Origin: Verrucomicrobiota bacterium
GTDB lineage: Bacteria; Verrucomicrobiota; Verrucomicrobiia; Limisphaerales; UBA11358
DNA: 64,000 nucleotides
Direction of reading: 5' to 3'
NCBI GenBank assembly: GCA_050012035.1
Contig: JBEKHY010000002.1
Location: 68,302-132,301, forward strand
The notes beneath the pieces are model-generated. The model saw only the letters and a list, made by a program, of their open reading frames with translations. It did no database searches and was not told where the DNA came from. This document shows positions 3,286 through 47,485 of the stretch, piece by piece (position 1 is the first letter of the stretch; each line of letters begins with the position of its first letter). The position numbers and the translations under genes were made by a program.

Positions 3286-6180
3286 ATGATTTCCGTCATC
3301 GAACATCAACCCGCCGGGGCAGGCATTGATTTGGTCAAACAAGTCGAGGGAATTTTTTCACCGACGGGGCTACTGTCGCGCGCGAAGAATTTTGAATTTC
3401 GCCCGCAGCAGCAGGAAATGGCCGTGGCGGTGGCGCGCGCGTTGCAGGGGCGCGAGCATCTCGCGGTCGAGGCGGGCACCGGCGTCGGCAAATCGCTGGC
3501 GTATCTGATTCCGGCCATCCTCTTTGCGGTGGCGCAGGAGAAAAAGGCCGTTGTCTCCACACACACCATCAATTTGCAGGAGCAGCTCACGGAAAAAGAC
3601 CTGCCGATGCTCGTGACTGTGCTCGGCGCACTGACGCCGCCGGTGAAGTTCAGTTTTGCCATGCTCAAAGGGCGCGCGAATTATCTCTGCACGCGCCGGC
3701 TGCAAAAAGCGATGCAGCAATCCGGCAATCTGTTCACGTCGTCCGAGGCCGAGGAGTTGCGGCGCATCTACGCGTGGTCAAAGAAAACCCGGGACGGCAG
3801 TTTGTCGGACTTCGACGTCGAACCCGACCCGAAGGTGTGGGCGCTGGTCTGCTCCGAGCGCGGGTTGTGCTCGCCGAAAATCTGCGGGTATCCGTCTGAT
3901 TTTGCCAAGGACCACGGCGTCTGCTTTTTCCAGCGCGCACGGAACAAGATTCTCTCATCGGACGTGCTGGTATTGAACCACACGCTGTTTTTCACGCTGC
4001 TCGGCGGCATCGAGGAGGAAGTTGAGGGCGGCATTTTGTTCAAGAACGACTTTGTGATTTTCGACGAGGCACACCAGATGGAACGGGTCGCGTCGAAACA
4101 CATTGGCCTGAGCGTGTCAAGCGGCCAGGTGCGTTACGCGTTGAACCGGCTCTGGAATCCGCGCACGGAAAAGGGCCTGCTCGCCACCTTGCGCAAGGGC
4201 GCCGCGGTGAAACTCGTCGCCGATATTCTGGATGAAGCCGACAAGTTTTTTGAAAACGTTGAGGCTGCGTGTGATGAGATTCAGCGCAATGCTGGAAAAA
4301 ACAGTTTCGGCGCGACGGAATCCCGCCCCACCAGCCGGAAGTGGACGGAACTTCGCATCCGCCGCGCGGAACTGGTGCAGGACAATGTTACTTTGCCCAT
4401 CCAGCGCCTGCGCGAAGCGGTGAGCGATTTGATCAAGCTGAGCGAGGACAAGGACATCGGGCAGGAATTGATCGAGTGCAACCGGCGGCTGGCCGAGTTG
4501 CGCGACGCGGTGAAAGCGTTCCTCGAACAGAGCGCCGCCGACCACGTTTACTGGGTCGAACGCAGCGGCAAGGCGCAAAAGAACCTTTCGCTGAACGCCG
4601 CGCCGATTGACGTGGCGGAATTTCTGCGCCGGCGTTTGTTTGAGAGCGACACGAGCATCATCATGACCAGCGCGACGCTGGCGACCGTAGGACAGGCGTC
4701 ACGCCTGTCTAGCGAGCGCGCCAGCGCGAGCGGTCAAACAAAATCAGGGCAAGTTACGCCGACTTCATCGGCGCGGGCAGGCGGGACGCCCGCCCTACTC
4801 TTCGCACCGTTCGACCCGGATGCGCCGGTTGGCATCTATGGACGACATTTACCGCATTGGCGGCAATCGAGCGCGACGTATTTTGTCACGTTTCGGCTCG
4901 CTGATTCCATCCCGCAGGACAGACTCCGACAGTGGGAGCGGGAGTTGGCCGAGTGGCTGAAAAAAAATCCGGAACCGCATTCAACGGCGCAAAAAGCCGA
5001 GTTTCATGAGCGGTTCACGGAGAGGTTTCAGCGCTGGCTTGACGCGGGCATGGGTGAATGTGTGCTGCGAAGGCCGGAAATTTCCACCGTCGTGGAAGGA
5101 GCGCTGTGTCACTTTGATGGCGAGCGTTACGTCCTCGGTCATTACGTCATCATGCCCAACCACGTCCACGTTGTGGTGCGGCCCGTGCAAGGAAATCTGC
5201 TCAAAGACATCGCCCATTCCTGGAAATCTTTCACGGCGCACAAACTGAATGAAATGTTGGGCCGCACCGGGCAATTATGGCAGGACGAATCCTTTGATTG
5301 CATTGTGCGCAATGCACTGCAACTGGAAAAAATCGGATTTTACATCCGGGAAAATCCGCCAAAAGCCGGTTTGAGGCCGGGAGAGTTTAGACTGGGAGCG
5401 GGTCGTAACGTAGGGCAGGCGTCCCGCCTGCCCAATACGCGCGAAAACGCGGACAAAGAAGAGAAAGAACTTGCGCCGGCTGCGTCGGCGCGGGCAGGCG
5501 GGACGCCCGCCCTACATTACTTCATCCGCCGCGTCGGCGCGGAATCGGCCACCCAACTGCAGGTCGGCACGCCGTTCGATTACGAGCGGCAGATGAAAAT
5601 TTTTGTCGCCAAAAAAATGCCCGACCCGCGCGAAGCCGGTTACGCCGACGCCCTCGAACATTGGATCGAACACTTCGTGAAGCAAACGCACGGCAAAGCC
5701 TTCGTGCTGTTCACGAATTACAAGCTCATGCAGGAACTCGGTGAGCGGATGGAACCGTTTTTTGACAGGTTCGGCGTCGCGTGTTTCGTGCAAGGCACCG
5801 GCACGCCGCGCACGACGATGCTGGAGAAGTTCAAAGACGACGTGGACTCGGTGTTGTTCGGCACGGACAGTTTCTGGCAGGGGGTGGATGTGCCGGGCGA
5901 ATCGCTCAGCAACGTCATCATCACGCGGCTGCCGTTTGCCGTGCCCGACCATCCGCTCATCGAGGCGCGCATCGAGGCGATTGAAGCGCGCGGCGGCGAT
6001 TCGTTCCGGGAATTCTCGCTGCCGGAGGCGATTTTGAAATTCCGCCAGGGCGTCGGCCGGCTGATCCGCACGAAGACCGACACCGGCATCATCGTCGTTT
6101 TGGATAACCGGGTTTTGACGAAGCAATACGGGCAGGCGTTTCTCGACGCGCTGCCGAAATGCCCGGTGGAAATTGTGTGA
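3286..6180 (+). CDS. dinG: DinG/YoaA-family SF2 helicase with an in-frame inserted RAYT domain
   Basis: Q motif FEFRPQQ, EAGTGVGKS, KGRANYLC (FeS region), [35 protein letters not shown]. Confidence 0.93.
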   Translation: MISVIEHQPAGAGIDLVKQVEGIFSPTGLLSRAKNFEFRPQQQEMAVAVARALQGREHLAVEAGTGVGKSLAYLIPAILFAVAQEKKAVVSTHTINLQEQLTEKDLPMLVTVLGALTPPVKFSFAMLKGRANYLCTRRLQKAMQQSGNLFTSSEAEELRRIYAWSKKTRDGSLSDFDVEPDPKVWALVCSERGLCSPKICGYPSDFAKDHGVCFFQRARNKILSSDVLVLNHTLFFTLLGGIEEEVEGGILFKNDFVIFDEAHQMERVASKHIGLSVSSGQVRYALNRLWNPRTEKGLLATLRKGAAVKLVADILDEADKFFENVEAACDEIQRNAGKNSFGATESRPTSRKWTELRIRRAELVQDNVTLPIQRLREAVSDLIKLSEDKDIGQELIECNRRLAELRDAVKAFLEQSAADHVYWVERSGKAQKNLSLNAAPIDVAEFLRRRLFESDTSIIMTSATLATVGQASRLSSERASASGQTKSGQVTPTSSARAGGTPALLFAPFDPDAPVGIYGRHLPHWRQSSATYFVTFRLADSIPQDRLRQWERELAEWLKKNPEPHSTAQKAEFHERFTERFQRWLDAGMGECVLRRPEISTVVEGALCHFDGERYVLGHYVIMPNHVHVVVRPVQGNLLKDIAHSWKSFTAHKLNEMLGRTGQLWQDESFDCIVRNALQLEKIGFYIRENPPKAGLRPGEFRLGAGRNVGQASRLPNTRENADKEEKELAPAASARAGGTPALHYFIRRVGAESATQLQVGTPFDYERQMKIFVAKKMPDPREAGYADALEHWIEHFVKQTHGKAFVLFTNYKLMQELGERMEPFFDRFGVACFVQGTGTPRTTMLEKFKDDVDSVLFGTDSFWQGVDVPGESLSNVIITRLPFAVPDHPLIEARIEAIEARGGDSFREFSLPEAILKFRQGVGRLIRTKTDTGIIVVLDNRVLTKQYGQAFLDALPKCPVEIV
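4687..5515 (+). mobile_element. REP-flanked REP-associated tyrosine transposase (RAYT/TnpA-REP, Y1 HUH) cassette inserted in frame in dinG
   Basis: RHLPHW, YFVTFRLADS, YVIMPNHVH (HUH), SWKSFTA, WQDESFD, YIRENP..AGL (catalytic Tyr); REP doublets at 4687-4798 and 5410-5515. Confidence 0.9.
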
Positions 6181-44345: not shown

Positions 44346-44532
44346 TGCGTGCCGGCCCGGATGGCTTTTTGCCTTTAGCCCCGACACGACAGCCGATATA
44401 ATCGCGGGTAGTGGGCTACTTTGAAATCGAATAAAAAGCCTTCGATTTTCCGAAGGTTTTTAGAACTTGACGGAACGGCAAATGCTTTGATATAGTCCTA
44501 TGGAACTGATGGAAACCATGAAGCCGAACGGT

Positions 44533-45126
44533 TTAGCGTTGGAATACCAACGAGACTACGCTGCATCCCGGCGTGATTTTAACGTCTCTGACATCATCAA
44601 TAATCCCAGCGCCAATGGCATCTGTCGCGTTTTTGGTTTGGGCTTCGCGGAAAAGTCCCTCGACGACTTCTTGCGTGAGCTTCGTTCGCTGCGTGAAAAC
44701 GCTGGCGATTCTCTTGTGGTCGCTAGTGACGCCCGTTAAAAACTCCCGCAGGTTTTTTTCTTCCAAGCGGAATGTTTGGTTTTTGAAGTCGAACCCTACA
44801 CCGTGAAACATGAAAGTCGAATGGGGACATGCGTAACGTTTCTTACCGGCAAGGAAAACAGCATTTCCAATTGAGTCCACGTTGCCGACGTTGTGCGTAA
44901 TCAGTTCAAACGGCATACCGAGTAAAACATTGTAAAGGTTCATTCCGTTCATCACGTTTCCGCCGGGGGTGGAGAGCAACAAGTAAACGGTTTTGACTTT
45001 CTGATTTACACAGTTTGCCATCACAGCCAAAAGGCTTTCTGTGGTGTGTGGGGATATTTCCGCCGAAAACGAAATGAACGTCGTTTCGGTCAGTTGGTTT
45101 GGGTTGGCTGGCGGATTCCCATTCAT
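44533..45126 (-). CDS. ClpP-like peptidase (IS passenger)
   Basis: LSTPGG.V..G..LYN, NVDSIG (Ser), FMFHG (His). Confidence 0.82.
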   Translation of the reverse strand: MNGNPPANPNQLTETTFISFSAEISPHTTESLLAVMANCVNQKVKTVYLLLSTPGGNVMNGMNLYNVLLGMPFELITHNVGNVDSIGNAVFLAGKKRYACPHSTFMFHGVGFDFKNQTFRLEEKNLREFLTGVTSDHKRIASVFTQRTKLTQEVVEGLFREAQTKNATDAIGAGIIDDVRDVKITPGCSVVSLVFQR

Positions 45127-45133
45127 AAATTTC

Positions 45134-45958
45134 TTAAACCAATTTAACAATTTCTTCCAAATTCCAAACATGGTCACTGATACCAGCTTCCATCGCAGGC
45201 GTCACGCGCAAAGTTTGGTGAATCCGGCAAAAGTTATAGTTCATGGCGTAAATCGCAATCATGTGCTTGTGATTCTCGATTTTCTTTGAAAAGGCATTCG
45301 TCAGCCTCGTAAAGCGGCGATTGGTCATGCGGAGCGTCAAATTTTGACGTTCCACGAACGAAGTGGAAATCAGATTGCGGTCTGGATTTCCGATGATTCT
45401 GCGGCGGCGTGCCCCAATACAAACCGGCGGTGAATAGCGAGTTTCACCCGTTCCAGTTTCACGCCCATATAATTTTATCAGCATTGAATAATCAATGTCC
45501 GCGCCAAAGGCATCTTCAACCGCCAGTAGGTATGGCCGGTGCCCGTCACTGGTTAATTGCACCCGGTTTGCCAACCGACCTTTCAGGTCGTGGATGAAAC
45601 TGTAAGCGCCAGCAGCGTCACGAAGCCCCACATGCCAGCTAGGAATCAATTTTGTGTCGGCATCAATCGCAATCCACGTCCAAGTGTCCCCCACGCCGTC
45701 TTGCCCCTGCAAATGCTCTGGAATGTTCGCCTGCTTGCAGTAGGTGAATGACCAAACCTCATCCACTTGAATCACCTTGCACGGTAGATTCCGCATAATT
45801 TTGTCGTGATACGCGGCGCACGCTTCACCAACTTCAACCAAGATTCGGGACACGGTTTTCTTGGCAACGCCCGTAAGCCGGACTGTGGAGCGCAAGCTGC
45901 AACCCTCAATCAAGCAATTAACCACTTTTGCCCTCTCTACCACTGATAGCTTATTCAT
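45134..45958 (-). CDS. IS1-family DDE transposase (single ORF, N-terminal HTH)
   Basis: EGCSLRSTVRLTGV, QVDEVWSF, LTSDG, TSFVERQNLTLR, RRFTRLTNAFSKK. Confidence 0.92.
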   Translation of the reverse strand: MNKLSVVERAKVVNCLIEGCSLRSTVRLTGVAKKTVSRILVEVGEACAAYHDKIMRNLPCKVIQVDEVWSFTYCKQANIPEHLQGQDGVGDTWTWIAIDADTKLIPSWHVGLRDAAGAYSFIHDLKGRLANRVQLTSDGHRPYLLAVEDAFGADIDYSMLIKLYGRETGTGETRYSPPVCIGARRRRIIGNPDRNLISTSFVERQNLTLRMTNRRFTRLTNAFSKKIENHKHMIAIYAMNYNFCRIHQTLRVTPAMEAGISDHVWNLEEIVKLV

Positions 45959-46007
45959 ACGATTTTTGTTGCTTTTGGCGGGTTTTCTGCTACTTTTTCT
46001 ACCGACA

Positions 46008-46082
46008 TGGCGCGCCGTGGTGGAATTGAACCACCATCTAATCCTTAGCAGAGACTGCTCTAGCCATTTGAGCTAACGGCGC
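46008..46082 (-). tRNA. Atypical tRNA-like gene (anticodon GCU, short variable loop) inside the IS
   Basis: GCGCCGT/ACGGCGC acceptor, GCTC/GAGC D stem, CTGCTAA loop, GGTGG-TTCAATT-CCACC T arm, G discriminator, encoded CCA. Confidence 0.85.
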
Positions 46083-46144
46083 AAACCTGTCAAACCGGCC
46101 ACCGAGAGCCCCCGCTAAAGGCGCTCGGTGGCCTCATTGTTTTA

Positions 46145-46173
46145 AGGGTAACAGTTTTATTTTCAATTGTCAA
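46145..46173 (-). promoter_or_regulatory. Sigma70-like promoter upstream of the tRNA-like gene and transposase
   Basis: TTGACA-N17-TACCCT on the minus strand. Confidence 0.6.
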
Positions 46174-46275
46174 CACTTTTATCCAACTATATTTTGAACC
46201 TGCGGAAATAAAAATGTCAGATTTATGTTGACAGGGTGGATTTGGGGGTGCAATTTGGAGCAAGAAAGGCACATT

Positions 46276-47277
46276 ATGGCAACTGACAAAAATATAGAAT
46301 ACGCTCAAAACTTGAGGAAAACCGATGATGCAAAGAAGCAAAAGCATCGCAGCCCGGCCTATCCATCCATAGGGCTGAAGGAGGCCCTTGAAAAGGCGCG
46401 CGCAATATGGGACAACGAGAAGCGCAACGAGGTTTCAGTTGATGTTGTTGCCGCACACTGGAAGATGGCGGCAAAAAGCAGTTCAACGCTTTTGGCAATT
46501 TCCGCGCTCAAAAAGTTTGCGCTTATTACAGACCGGGGCAGTGGCGACCAGCGATATGTAAAATTAACCGATTTGGCTTACAACATTCTTCGAGCCGAAC
46601 CGGATTCTGATGTGTGGCTAAAGTCAGTTCAAAAGTCCGCCTTGTCTCCTAAAATGATTGTTGAACTATGGGAAACAGACAAAGAAAGCCCAAAATCAAC
46701 GGCAAATCTGAAGAAATACTTGGAATTTGAGAAGAAATTCAATCCGGCTGTAATTGACCAGTTTGTTCAAGCCTATCGTGACACTATTTCATTTGCAAAA
46801 CTTGGGATTGGTGATAAAGTGTTGACAGACGGAGCCGATGGTGACGCGGTGGAGCTGGAAAATGGCAGTCAGGAAGAAGATTTACTACCACCAGCCGGAG
46901 GCAAAGTCGCACCAATAACGAAGCAAATAGGCAAAAAGATGTTGGCACAATACTCAATTCCAATTGGGGCGAATGAAGCCACAATCACGTTCACTGGCGC
47001 GGAATTAACCGTTGGTGATTTTGACGCGCTGGCTGATTATGTTGTCATTTTCAAAAAGCAGTTTGAGCGGAAGCAAAAATCAGAATCTTCAAGTTCAACC
47101 CCCACAAAACCAGCATTCCCCGAACCGCCGTTCGTGGCACTTTGGAAAGGGAAAAATTTTGATAAAATGGTTAAAATTGTCGGCCAACCAGTTTGGGAAA
47201 AAGGTGAATGGATTTACCAAGATGATGGCGGGACTTTGGTCCCGGCCAAAGAGCTTTTTCCCAATTTGAAAAAATGA
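46276..47277 (+). CDS. Hypothetical protein, possible winged-helix N-terminus (IS passenger)
   Basis: Long ORF; RSPAYPSIGLKEALEKA..ISALKKFALI..VKLTDLA; TTGACA upstream at 46228. Confidence 0.7.
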   Translation: MATDKNIEYAQNLRKTDDAKKQKHRSPAYPSIGLKEALEKARAIWDNEKRNEVSVDVVAAHWKMAAKSSSTLLAISALKKFALITDRGSGDQRYVKLTDLAYNILRAEPDSDVWLKSVQKSALSPKMIVELWETDKESPKSTANLKKYLEFEKKFNPAVIDQFVQAYRDTISFAKLGIGDKVLTDGADGDAVELENGSQEEDLLPPAGGKVAPITKQIGKKMLAQYSIPIGANEATITFTGAELTVGDFDALADYVVIFKKQFERKQKSESSSSTPTKPAFPEPPFVALWKGKNFDKMVKIVGQPVWEKGEWIYQDDGGTLVPAKELFPNLKK

Positions 47278-47412
47278 TTATTTACGGCGCGGCTTGCTGG
47301 CGGGCTTGGCGGGTGCTTTGATTGGCTTCTCTGACAGCTTAATCACGTCAGCAAAGACGCTGTGAGCAAGCTGGATTGTATCGCTAGGTCGCTTGCGCTT
47401 TGGTTTTATCAT
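47278..47412 (-). CDS. Small basic protein at the IS end (44 aa)
   Basis: Manual translation MIKPKRKRPSDTIQLAHSVFADVIKLSEKPIKAPAKPASKPRRK; below the ORF-track cutoff. Confidence 0.55.
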   Translation of the reverse strand: MIKPKRKRPSDTIQLAHSVFADVIKLSEKPIKAPAKPASKPRRK

Positions 47413-47485
47413 GCCCCAACTTTGCCACACTCAGGCCGGAAACGGAAATCCAAATTCAAAGTAGCCCACTACCTAATCGCGCGCC

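Follow-up and report, generated by a model that had tools for sequence, protein, structure and literature searches.

An identity-mismatched tRNA in the transposase leader of an IS1-like element: a possible RNA toxin in a reusable slot

Background

RNA-only and cis-antisense toxin-antitoxin systems are exemplified by the type VIII SdsR/RyeA and CreTA and by the type I hok/sok layout. The locus described here resembles the cis-antisense systems in its predicted overlapping sense and antisense RNAs within a mobile element and in a candidate toxin that would act on translation. Unlike in SdsR/RyeA, CreTA and hok/sok, however, the candidate toxin would itself be a tRNA. Natural mistranslating tRNAs are also known: Streptomyces tRNA-ProA and tRNA-ProX have proline bodies, and some of them come with a dedicated synthetase. 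The tRNA examined here is likewise a natural bacterial tRNA that combines one body with the anticodon of another amino acid, but its body is not of the proline type and no synthetase gene was seen in these elements. Single-ORF, cargo-carrying members of the IS1 family (transporter IS) presumably belong to an ISMhu11-like grouping, on which our literature search found no paper. They share with the present element a DDE transposase, GG-starting repeats, 8-bp duplications and variable passengers; the tRNA module in the transposase leader sets the present element apart from them.

The closest described tRNAs are the allo-tRNAs and other irregular tRNAs, which have been reviewed (PMC7609411) and which occur near toxin-antitoxin genes (Mukai 2017, PMC5389517). 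According to the text of the latter paper, serine-charged allo-tRNAs with leucine anticodons killed E. coli, G-1 tRNAs were charged with histidine yet unused in translation, and one irregular tRNA pseudogene overlaps a transposon-related ORF. The tRNAs of the present family agree with those of PMC5389517 in having their identity outside the anticodon (Ser, Ala or His G-1), diverse non-matching anticodons and a soil or peat origin. The allo-tRNAs in that text mostly have 8/4 or 9/3 folds, whereas ours is a 7/5, short-armed, arginine-type molecule. The text and supplement of PMC5389517 speak neither of an IS1 family or a fixed slot nor of tRNA replacement or an antisense unit, and the word "antisense" does not occur in its main text, although the locus map in its Figure 4A may show such an arrangement. 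A full-text literature search, with most subscription journals outside its scope, found no paper on tRNAs in IS1 leaders. Within the literature searched, the slot-conserved leader tRNA is a real feature that is unexplained in print.

Results and discussion

An intact IS1-like element

The window, by which we mean the whole stretch of DNA analysed, spans 64,000 nucleotides of a Verrucomicrobiota contig (JBEKHY010000002.1, positions 68,302 to 132,301). It contains an IS1-like element with the following parts.

44399-44406, plus strand: left copy of the 8-bp target-site duplication (identical 8-mers at both element ends)
44407-44432, plus strand: terminal inverted repeat at the downstream end, 26 nt, 88% complementary to 47448-47473, with the family-wide GGTAGTGG start
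44533-45126, minus strand: ClpP-like protease, cargo, 197 aa (Pfam PF00574, E 1e-17)
45134-45958, minus strand: IS1-like DDE transposase, single ORF, 274 aa (PF03400, E 1.3e-4; D66, D138 and E203 invariant)
46167-46195, plus strand: predicted divergent promoter of the winged-helix gene (9/12 match)
46276-47277, plus strand: divergent cargo gene of about 333 aa with an N-terminal winged helix-turn-helix (predicted model, pLDDT 83)
47448-47473, minus strand: terminal inverted repeat at the upstream end, pairing with 44407-44432
47474-47481, plus strand: right copy of the 8-bp target-site duplication

The element (44407-47473) is intact at 3,067 bp, with 26-bp inverted ends and an 8-bp duplication, and the genome holds one full copy. 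Its GC content is 47%, compared with 57% for the genome. An empty site in peat run X22 skips 3,075 bp, exactly the element plus one duplication, which indicates that the insertion is polymorphic in the population. The DDE transposase, GG-starting inverted repeats and 8-9-bp target duplication are those of IS1-type elements, while the canonical insA/insB programmed frameshift is absent, the transposase being one open frame of 274 codons. Its PF03400 match (22.8 bits) falls under the 24.1 cut-off, and relatives at 52-58%, including three of four plasmid relatives, are annotated as IS1 family.

The winged-helix protein has no Pfam, PADLOC, named Atlas cluster, viral locus or PDB match at E <= 0.001, and its predicted model gives only weak ArsR/MarR-type fold matches (E >= 0.03). 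Its gene family adjoins a leader tRNA in six of eight loci, five of those six being seeds, and it is a possible regulator of the tRNA module. A small basic ORF at the element end (47278-47430, minus strand) resembles the short lysine-rich proteins that end many relatives. Elsewhere in the host genome, positions 38814-38911 of contig C10 hold a fragment that matches the transposase 3' end (80% of nucleotides) and is probably a non-autonomous derivative, and more transposase remnants occur on contigs C4 and C10.

An arginine-type body with a serine anticodon

The leader of the transposase contains three features on or across the minus strand.

46145-46173, minus strand: predicted sense promoter for hairpin, tRNA and transposase (from sequence; a similar site lies at the same place in relative L014)
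46097-46143, either strand: GC hairpin with an A-rich tract on its 5' side, the leader stem of the tRNA transcript; on the opposite strand it reads as a hairpin followed by UCAUUGUUUU, a predicted terminator
46008-46082, minus strand: tRNA with an Arg-type body, 75 nt, GCU anticodon (46049-46047), G73, encoded CCA and C20 (46063)

The promoter, the hairpin and the cloverleaf are what the initial annotation had picked out, and they hold up in detail. The promoter has TTGACA at 46173-46168, a spacer of 17 nt and TACCCT at 46150-46145; it matches the consensus at 9 of 12 positions and is absent from the list of the promoter scanner. The hairpin (46133-46097) combines 10 Watson-Crick pairs with an apical stem (-28.4 kcal/mol, z -5.1), and Rfam assigns nothing to it. 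A "Plastid-ycf2" Rfam match, far below its cut-off, is the mirror strand of the tRNA. The cloverleaf itself (46082-46008) is called Ser(GCT) by ARAGORN and matches Rfam RF00005 at 54 bits (cut-off 29, E 8e-9); the four ordinary tRNAs of the window score higher, at 60-77 bits. Its acceptor (7/7), D (4/4) and T (5/5) arms consist of Watson-Crick pairs throughout (16/16). The anticodon stem is indeed weak and one base short: its pairs are A-U, G-U, U-A, C-G and U-G, and one base is missing at 26/27.

The variable loop has four nucleotides, so the long arm of tRNA-Ser is absent, and the host already has a normal long-arm Ser(GCU) gene on contig C17. The leader tRNA is accordingly not a serine tRNA. 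When the anticodon arm is masked, its best three matches among 47 host tRNAs are all Arg; this masked test recovers the correct isotype for 32 of 40 host tRNAs. It also resembles the host tRNA-Arg in carrying the marks C35, U36 and G73, which are acceptable to ArgRS. It differs from the host tRNA-Arg in its GCU anticodon, in its weak, shortened anticodon stem and in having C rather than A at position 20. A20 is a main ArgRS determinant according to the text of PMC12361112, and it is present in other Arg-type leader tRNAs (for example L039, L091, L096, L123, L151 and L197). Folding of the unmodified RNA further predicts that the anticodon pairs with the molecule's own D arm (ensemble probability 0.92), whereas the same prediction gives a median of 0.03 for host tRNAs, with 4 of 47 above 0.5. 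The molecule is therefore probably a feeble or attenuated copy, an arginine body that would read AGC/AGU and would be both poorly charged and poorly decoding.

An identical tRNA occurs in contigs of seven of eight peat or wetland runs, several of which may be the source sample; among the listed pieces of the eighth run, X24, none spans it. This agreement rules out an assembly error, and no population variants were found among the runs compared. The tRNA-only pattern for this tRNA type had no match in 400 other genomes of the host order. As the initial annotation proposed, the tRNA is not an integration-site remnant: it is whole, it lies 1.4-1.6 kb from both ends of the element that surrounds it, and a blastn search of the whole element against the host matched no host tRNA copy. 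The annotation had also reported a 17-codon upstream ORF that starts at the last A of CCA and whose TGA overlaps the transposase ATG. This ORF exists, but a function for it is unsupported, and it appears to be a chance frame whose ATG is absent in five of five close relatives; the ATGA overlap follows from the Met-Asn start of the transposase. The annotation did not recognise that the body is of the Arg type and lacks A20, that close relatives differ by exchange of the tRNA, or that an antisense unit can be predicted.

Replacement of the tRNA between close relatives

In the clade of the window (transposases 78-92% identical), five relatives have a tRNA that ends 47-51 nt before the ATG, and none of these tRNAs is like the window's; L001 and L003 have ordinary genes in the slot instead. 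The comparison with L014 is the most direct. Here the hairpin agrees at 35 of 38 positions, the last 35 nt of the spacer at 32 and the transposase start at 263 of 300 nt, while only 41 of 76 tRNA positions are shared. The L014 tRNA is of the His type with anticodon UGU, and a loose contig end in run X4 holds a further relative that ends in a His-type 3' end. On these alignments, the tRNA is the fastest-changing part of the module, with its fold kept.

A family of elements with mismatched tRNAs

We collected 245 loci of related transposases, of which 211 were evaluable, that is, distinct and with a full transposase start and at least 300 nt upstream (truncated starts, short upstreams and duplicates were dropped). 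A same-strand leader tRNA-like gene is present in 43 of the 211 distinct elements, including the window's own and one more in the host genome. Opposite-strand or downstream tRNA-likes were scored as non-bearing. Detection is a lower bound, since L028 and L233 came to light only on visual inspection or in a motif scan; ARAGORN at threshold 80 gave mostly noise. About a dozen of the tRNA cases came from 43 later loci of the host order. The bearers appear scattered among tRNA-less members on the transposase tree. Collecting homologous elements was the check that the initial annotation had proposed, and because the cloverleaf is kept in the same slot of relatives, the window tRNA is not a lone decaying capture.

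Most complete relatives have GGTAGTG at their ends, are flanked by 8-bp duplications and carry 2-5 kb of variable cargo, which includes HicA, Panacea/SocA antitoxins, ClpP/SDH proteases and BstA. The BstA phage-defence gene is cargo of the close relative L004 (positions 3873-4820; 85% transposase identity). Four plasmid relatives have no leader tRNA, and a motif scan found no 9/3 or 8/4 allo-tRNAs in the tRNA-less close relatives of the window.

The synthetases for Ala, His, Arg, Leu and Ser rely on marks outside the anticodon. The leader tRNAs mostly carry identity marks of these five kinds, and their anticodons mostly do not match. Among the 31 short-arm leader tRNAs, 14 have G3:U70 (the Ala mark) and four have C73 with an encoded G-1 (the His mark). 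The pairings of body and anticodon are as follows.

Ala bodies: UAC, UAG, CCC
His bodies: UGU, AGU, GUU
Arg bodies: ACU, GCU, CGU, CGG
Leu bodies (long arm): UUA (five distinct), AGA, GGA
Ser-like bodies (long arm): UAG, GUA, AUA; the GUA group may derive from Tyr

A few cases are cognate or ambiguous (L197 with GCG, and Gly-like and Cys-like cases). The initial annotation's suggestion of a mischarged tRNA fits this family, whose tRNAs retain their identity marks outside the anticodon and vary in the anticodon itself. In a widespread IS1-like group that carries cargo, roughly every fifth element has a tRNA in which the charging marks conflict with the anticodon. The irregular tRNAs found in soil metagenomes, so far unexplained, thereby gain a defined vehicle and a layout of sense promoter, hairpin, tRNA and reverse promoter, and tRNA annotation based on the anticodon will miscall such genes.

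The looseness of these tRNAs is concentrated in the anticodon stem, where 31 of 155 pairs are mismatched, compared with 2 of 180 in host tRNAs. The acceptor stem (3/217 against 3/252) and the T stem (1/155 against 2/180) differ little from the host. The alignment behind these counts was fitted to a model whose training set included some of the genes themselves, and the relatives are not independent. The anticodon is unusable in two members: L137 has a 32-nt structured loop (tRNA-like at 2341-2442), and L191 is a tmRNA-like Ala acceptor stub (2453-2525). The anticodons AGU, ACU, AGA and UUA are absent from the host tRNA set.

Several single loci are worth recording. The five Leu-body tRNAs with the ochre anticodon UUA are in L047, L051, L102, L125 and L146. 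L028, about 290 nt before its transposase, has a degenerate T loop with G3:U70 and CCA intact. L197, the second and distant IS1-like element of the host genome (2,254 bp, 8-bp duplication), has its tRNA with the rare anticodon GCG at 127161-127237 of contig C3 (minus strand), behind a hairpin similar to that of the window. L196 and L221-L239 have compact Ala-type tRNA-likes with UAC loops of 7-9 nt; their transposases keep GTA at codon 161, where RNA-less members of that clade have TCA, GAA, GTT or ATT.

Arg-body ACU/GCU tRNA-likes were also found by the tRNA-only pattern at 14 distinct viral loci, 13 of them without this transposase, so that the tRNA type is a wider mobile-element trait. The viral examples (L246-L267) have A20 and often stand alone with a promoter and a terminator; in several the acceptor end is broken and the anticodon loop is intact.

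A predicted antisense unit

Two further features are predicted on the plus strand of the window.

45969-45996, plus strand: predicted reverse (antisense) promoter, TTGCTT at 45969-45974, 16 nt, TACTTT at 45991-45996, with a start at about 46003
46003-46143, plus strand: predicted antisense RNA of about 140 nt that would cover the whole tRNA and end at the hairpin, placed from the promoter and terminator

Of 39 loci, 29 have a strong hairpin with an A-rich 5' tract in the 40 nt that precede the tRNA; for host tRNAs the figure is 2 of 47 (L057, which has no hairpin within 110 nt, was left out). At least six A residues precede the hairpin in 31 of the 39 loci, and at least six T residues follow it in only two. 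A blind scan found the hairpin/A-tract signature in 22 of 40 tRNA-bearing elements, compared with 11 of 160 tRNA-less ones. On the opposite strand this arrangement becomes a hairpin followed by U residues, a predicted intrinsic terminator for RNA that arrives through the tRNA.

Of 26 discovery loci, 13 under a strict and 17 under a relaxed definition have a reverse sigma-70-like pattern no more than 80 nt beyond the tRNA end, compared with none of 48 other host-genome tRNAs, 4 of 23 non-leader tRNAs of the loci and a shuffle mean of 1.6. The full pattern is present in only 1 of 12 held-out loci. A -35-like hexamer at fixed distance, a motif chosen after seeing the data, occurs in 22 of 40 loci overall and in 8 of the 12 held out (shuffle mean 3.2). 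For several of the held-out loci, antisense read-through might instead come from a small divergent gene that resembles a repressor. All five close relatives of the window have the reverse pattern at the same distance, one of them as TTGACT-16-TATAAT; the window's own site, with 6 of 12 matches, is the weakest of its clade. A reverse promoter near the transposase start is also found in 63 of 145 tRNA-less elements, and it may therefore be the ordinary outward promoter of the family. The conserved features U8, D-loop GG, T loop, G3:U70 and CCA are all on the sense strand, which indicates that the tRNA strand is the one under selection.

L057 may have a different solution. Between 2200 and 2445, upstream of its tRNA, a 75-nt reverse RNA is predicted from TTGACT-17-TACAAT to a hairpin and U tract, with one 10-nt block complementary to the variable loop and another block complementary to the anticodon loop. 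The duplex is beaten by 26 of 1,000 shuffles in this one case, and the RNA is a possible trans-acting anti-tRNA. We discarded a general kissing between hairpin loop and anticodon, or a C4-like pairing of leader and tRNA. Across 40 loci the longest words shared by leader and tRNA average 6.6 (direct) and 6.4 (inverted), compared with 6.5 and 6.4 for permuted pairs, and L057 is the sole exception.

Possible functions

We give a probability of about 0.4 to the reading that an identity-mismatched tRNA in a reusable slot acts as a weak RNA toxin held in check by the predicted antisense RNA. If so, both strands would be transcribed and the tRNA would be matured by RNase P with its CCA. A host synthetase that ignores the anticodon would charge it, with arginine in the case of the tRNA in the window, which would read AGC/AGU. 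The charged, mismatched tRNA would disturb translation unless neutralised by the RNA of the opposite strand, with which it would pair and decay as a duplex. Loss of the short-lived antisense RNA, through loss of the element or through phage shut-off of host transcription, would release the stable tRNA and lead to addiction or abortive defence. The mirror strand being the antidote, a tRNA newly placed in the slot would at once have a matching antidote, and this would account for the rapid turnover. The toxin-antitoxin reading would also explain the choice of bodies, the weakened anticodon arms (as attenuation), the opposite-strand terminator, the free exchange of tRNAs and the presence of cargo of the toxin-antitoxin and defence kinds.

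Some observations count against a toxin: the present copy has C20 and an anticodon predicted to be paired, L137 and L191 could not decode, and the histidine-charged G-1 tRNAs described in the text of PMC5389517 are unused in translation. Transposases do not clearly avoid the codons that their tRNA would misread (mean z -0.3, 12 of 17 negative). A more far-reaching form must be considered doubtful. In it the toxin is the tRNA itself and the genetic code is weaponised: the slot would accept mischarged tRNAs, the mirror-strand RNA would silence them, and element loss or phage infection would release them. That tRNA swaps diversify such a toxin, giving Ser-to-Arg, Thr-to-His, Val-to-Ala, ochre-to-Leu and other changes, is a similarly tentative proposal. 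If the locus is a toxin-antitoxin or defence unit, it would be a novel route by which mobile DNA affects translation; otherwise the family still provides a natural collection of candidate missense and ochre suppressors.

The best-surviving alternative, which we consider unlikely, is a decoy or shield: an RNA that, once processed and aminoacylated by way of its acceptor/T half, would titrate tRNA-cutting toxins, anticodon nucleases (perhaps including nucleases carried as cargo) or EF-Tu, and that is not meant to decode. Conserved acceptor and T stems with loose anticodon stems would suit such a molecule, as would a tRNA that changes faster than its flanks and the viral Arg-body tRNA-likes with broken acceptor ends. 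The text of PMC5389517 shows that charged but non-decoding tRNAs exist. A decoy should, however, copy host anticodon loops, and many of the anticodons found here are foreign to the host; it needs no antisense silencer, and no tRNase consistently co-occurs with the leader tRNAs.

Somewhat less likely again is control in cis of the transposase mRNA, with the tRNA either excised (by RNase P and 3' trimming) or paired with antisense RNA so as to destabilise or activate the message. The 47-51 nt gap in the window's clade fits this proposal; no sense promoter lies within it, so tRNA and transposase would share a transcript. An antisense RNA over the transposase leader would resemble IS10 RNA-OUT. 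In most relatives, however, a promoter-like site belonging to the transposase alone follows the tRNA, with distances of up to 755 nt and other genes in between, and the tRNAs of L085, L222, L231 and L066 are on the other strand or downstream. Processing does not need charging marks such as G3:U70 and G-1:C73, yet these are kept.

It is improbable that the window tRNA is a defunct member of an otherwise functional family, or that the slot is a functionless capture trap for tRNA fragments. The lost A20, the missing base, the alternatively folding anticodon arm and the weakest reverse promoter of the clade would agree with decay, as would the single element copy and the absence of a match among the other genomes of the order. 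Against decay, the acceptor, D and T pairs are perfect and CCA is encoded, the damage is confined to an arm that is loose family-wide, and the element is intact and polymorphic.

The least probable reading is a private decoder that reads a chosen codon in the element's own transposase to set or recode its output. The attraction of this reading is a distant clade with 12 Ala-type tRNA-likes (11 UAC loops and one UAG), in which GTA is at codon 161 in 12 of 12 members with the RNA and 0 of 5 without, while L199/L201 (UAG) have CTA at 163. It is opposed by the window itself, whose transposase has 5 AGY codons (6.6 +/- 2.0 in other elements), none at an Arg column or at 158-163, so that the recoding suggested in the initial annotation is unsupported; by the lack of a codon link in His-type relatives; by the five ochre-tRNA elements, whose transposases all end in TGA; and by AGT at 158 and ATA at 161, which follow the clade rather than the anticodon.

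Other occupants of the slot

L006 and L017 share a non-tRNA structured RNA in the slot, about 430-330 nt before the transposase, that consists of a hairpin, an A tract and a second hairpin. In L079, L096, L125, L199, L237, L239 and other loci, the stretch before the hairpin contains short ORFs that have strong ribosome-binding sites and, in some cases, tandem AGA codons. These ORFs are reminiscent of leader peptides or CreT-like RNAs.
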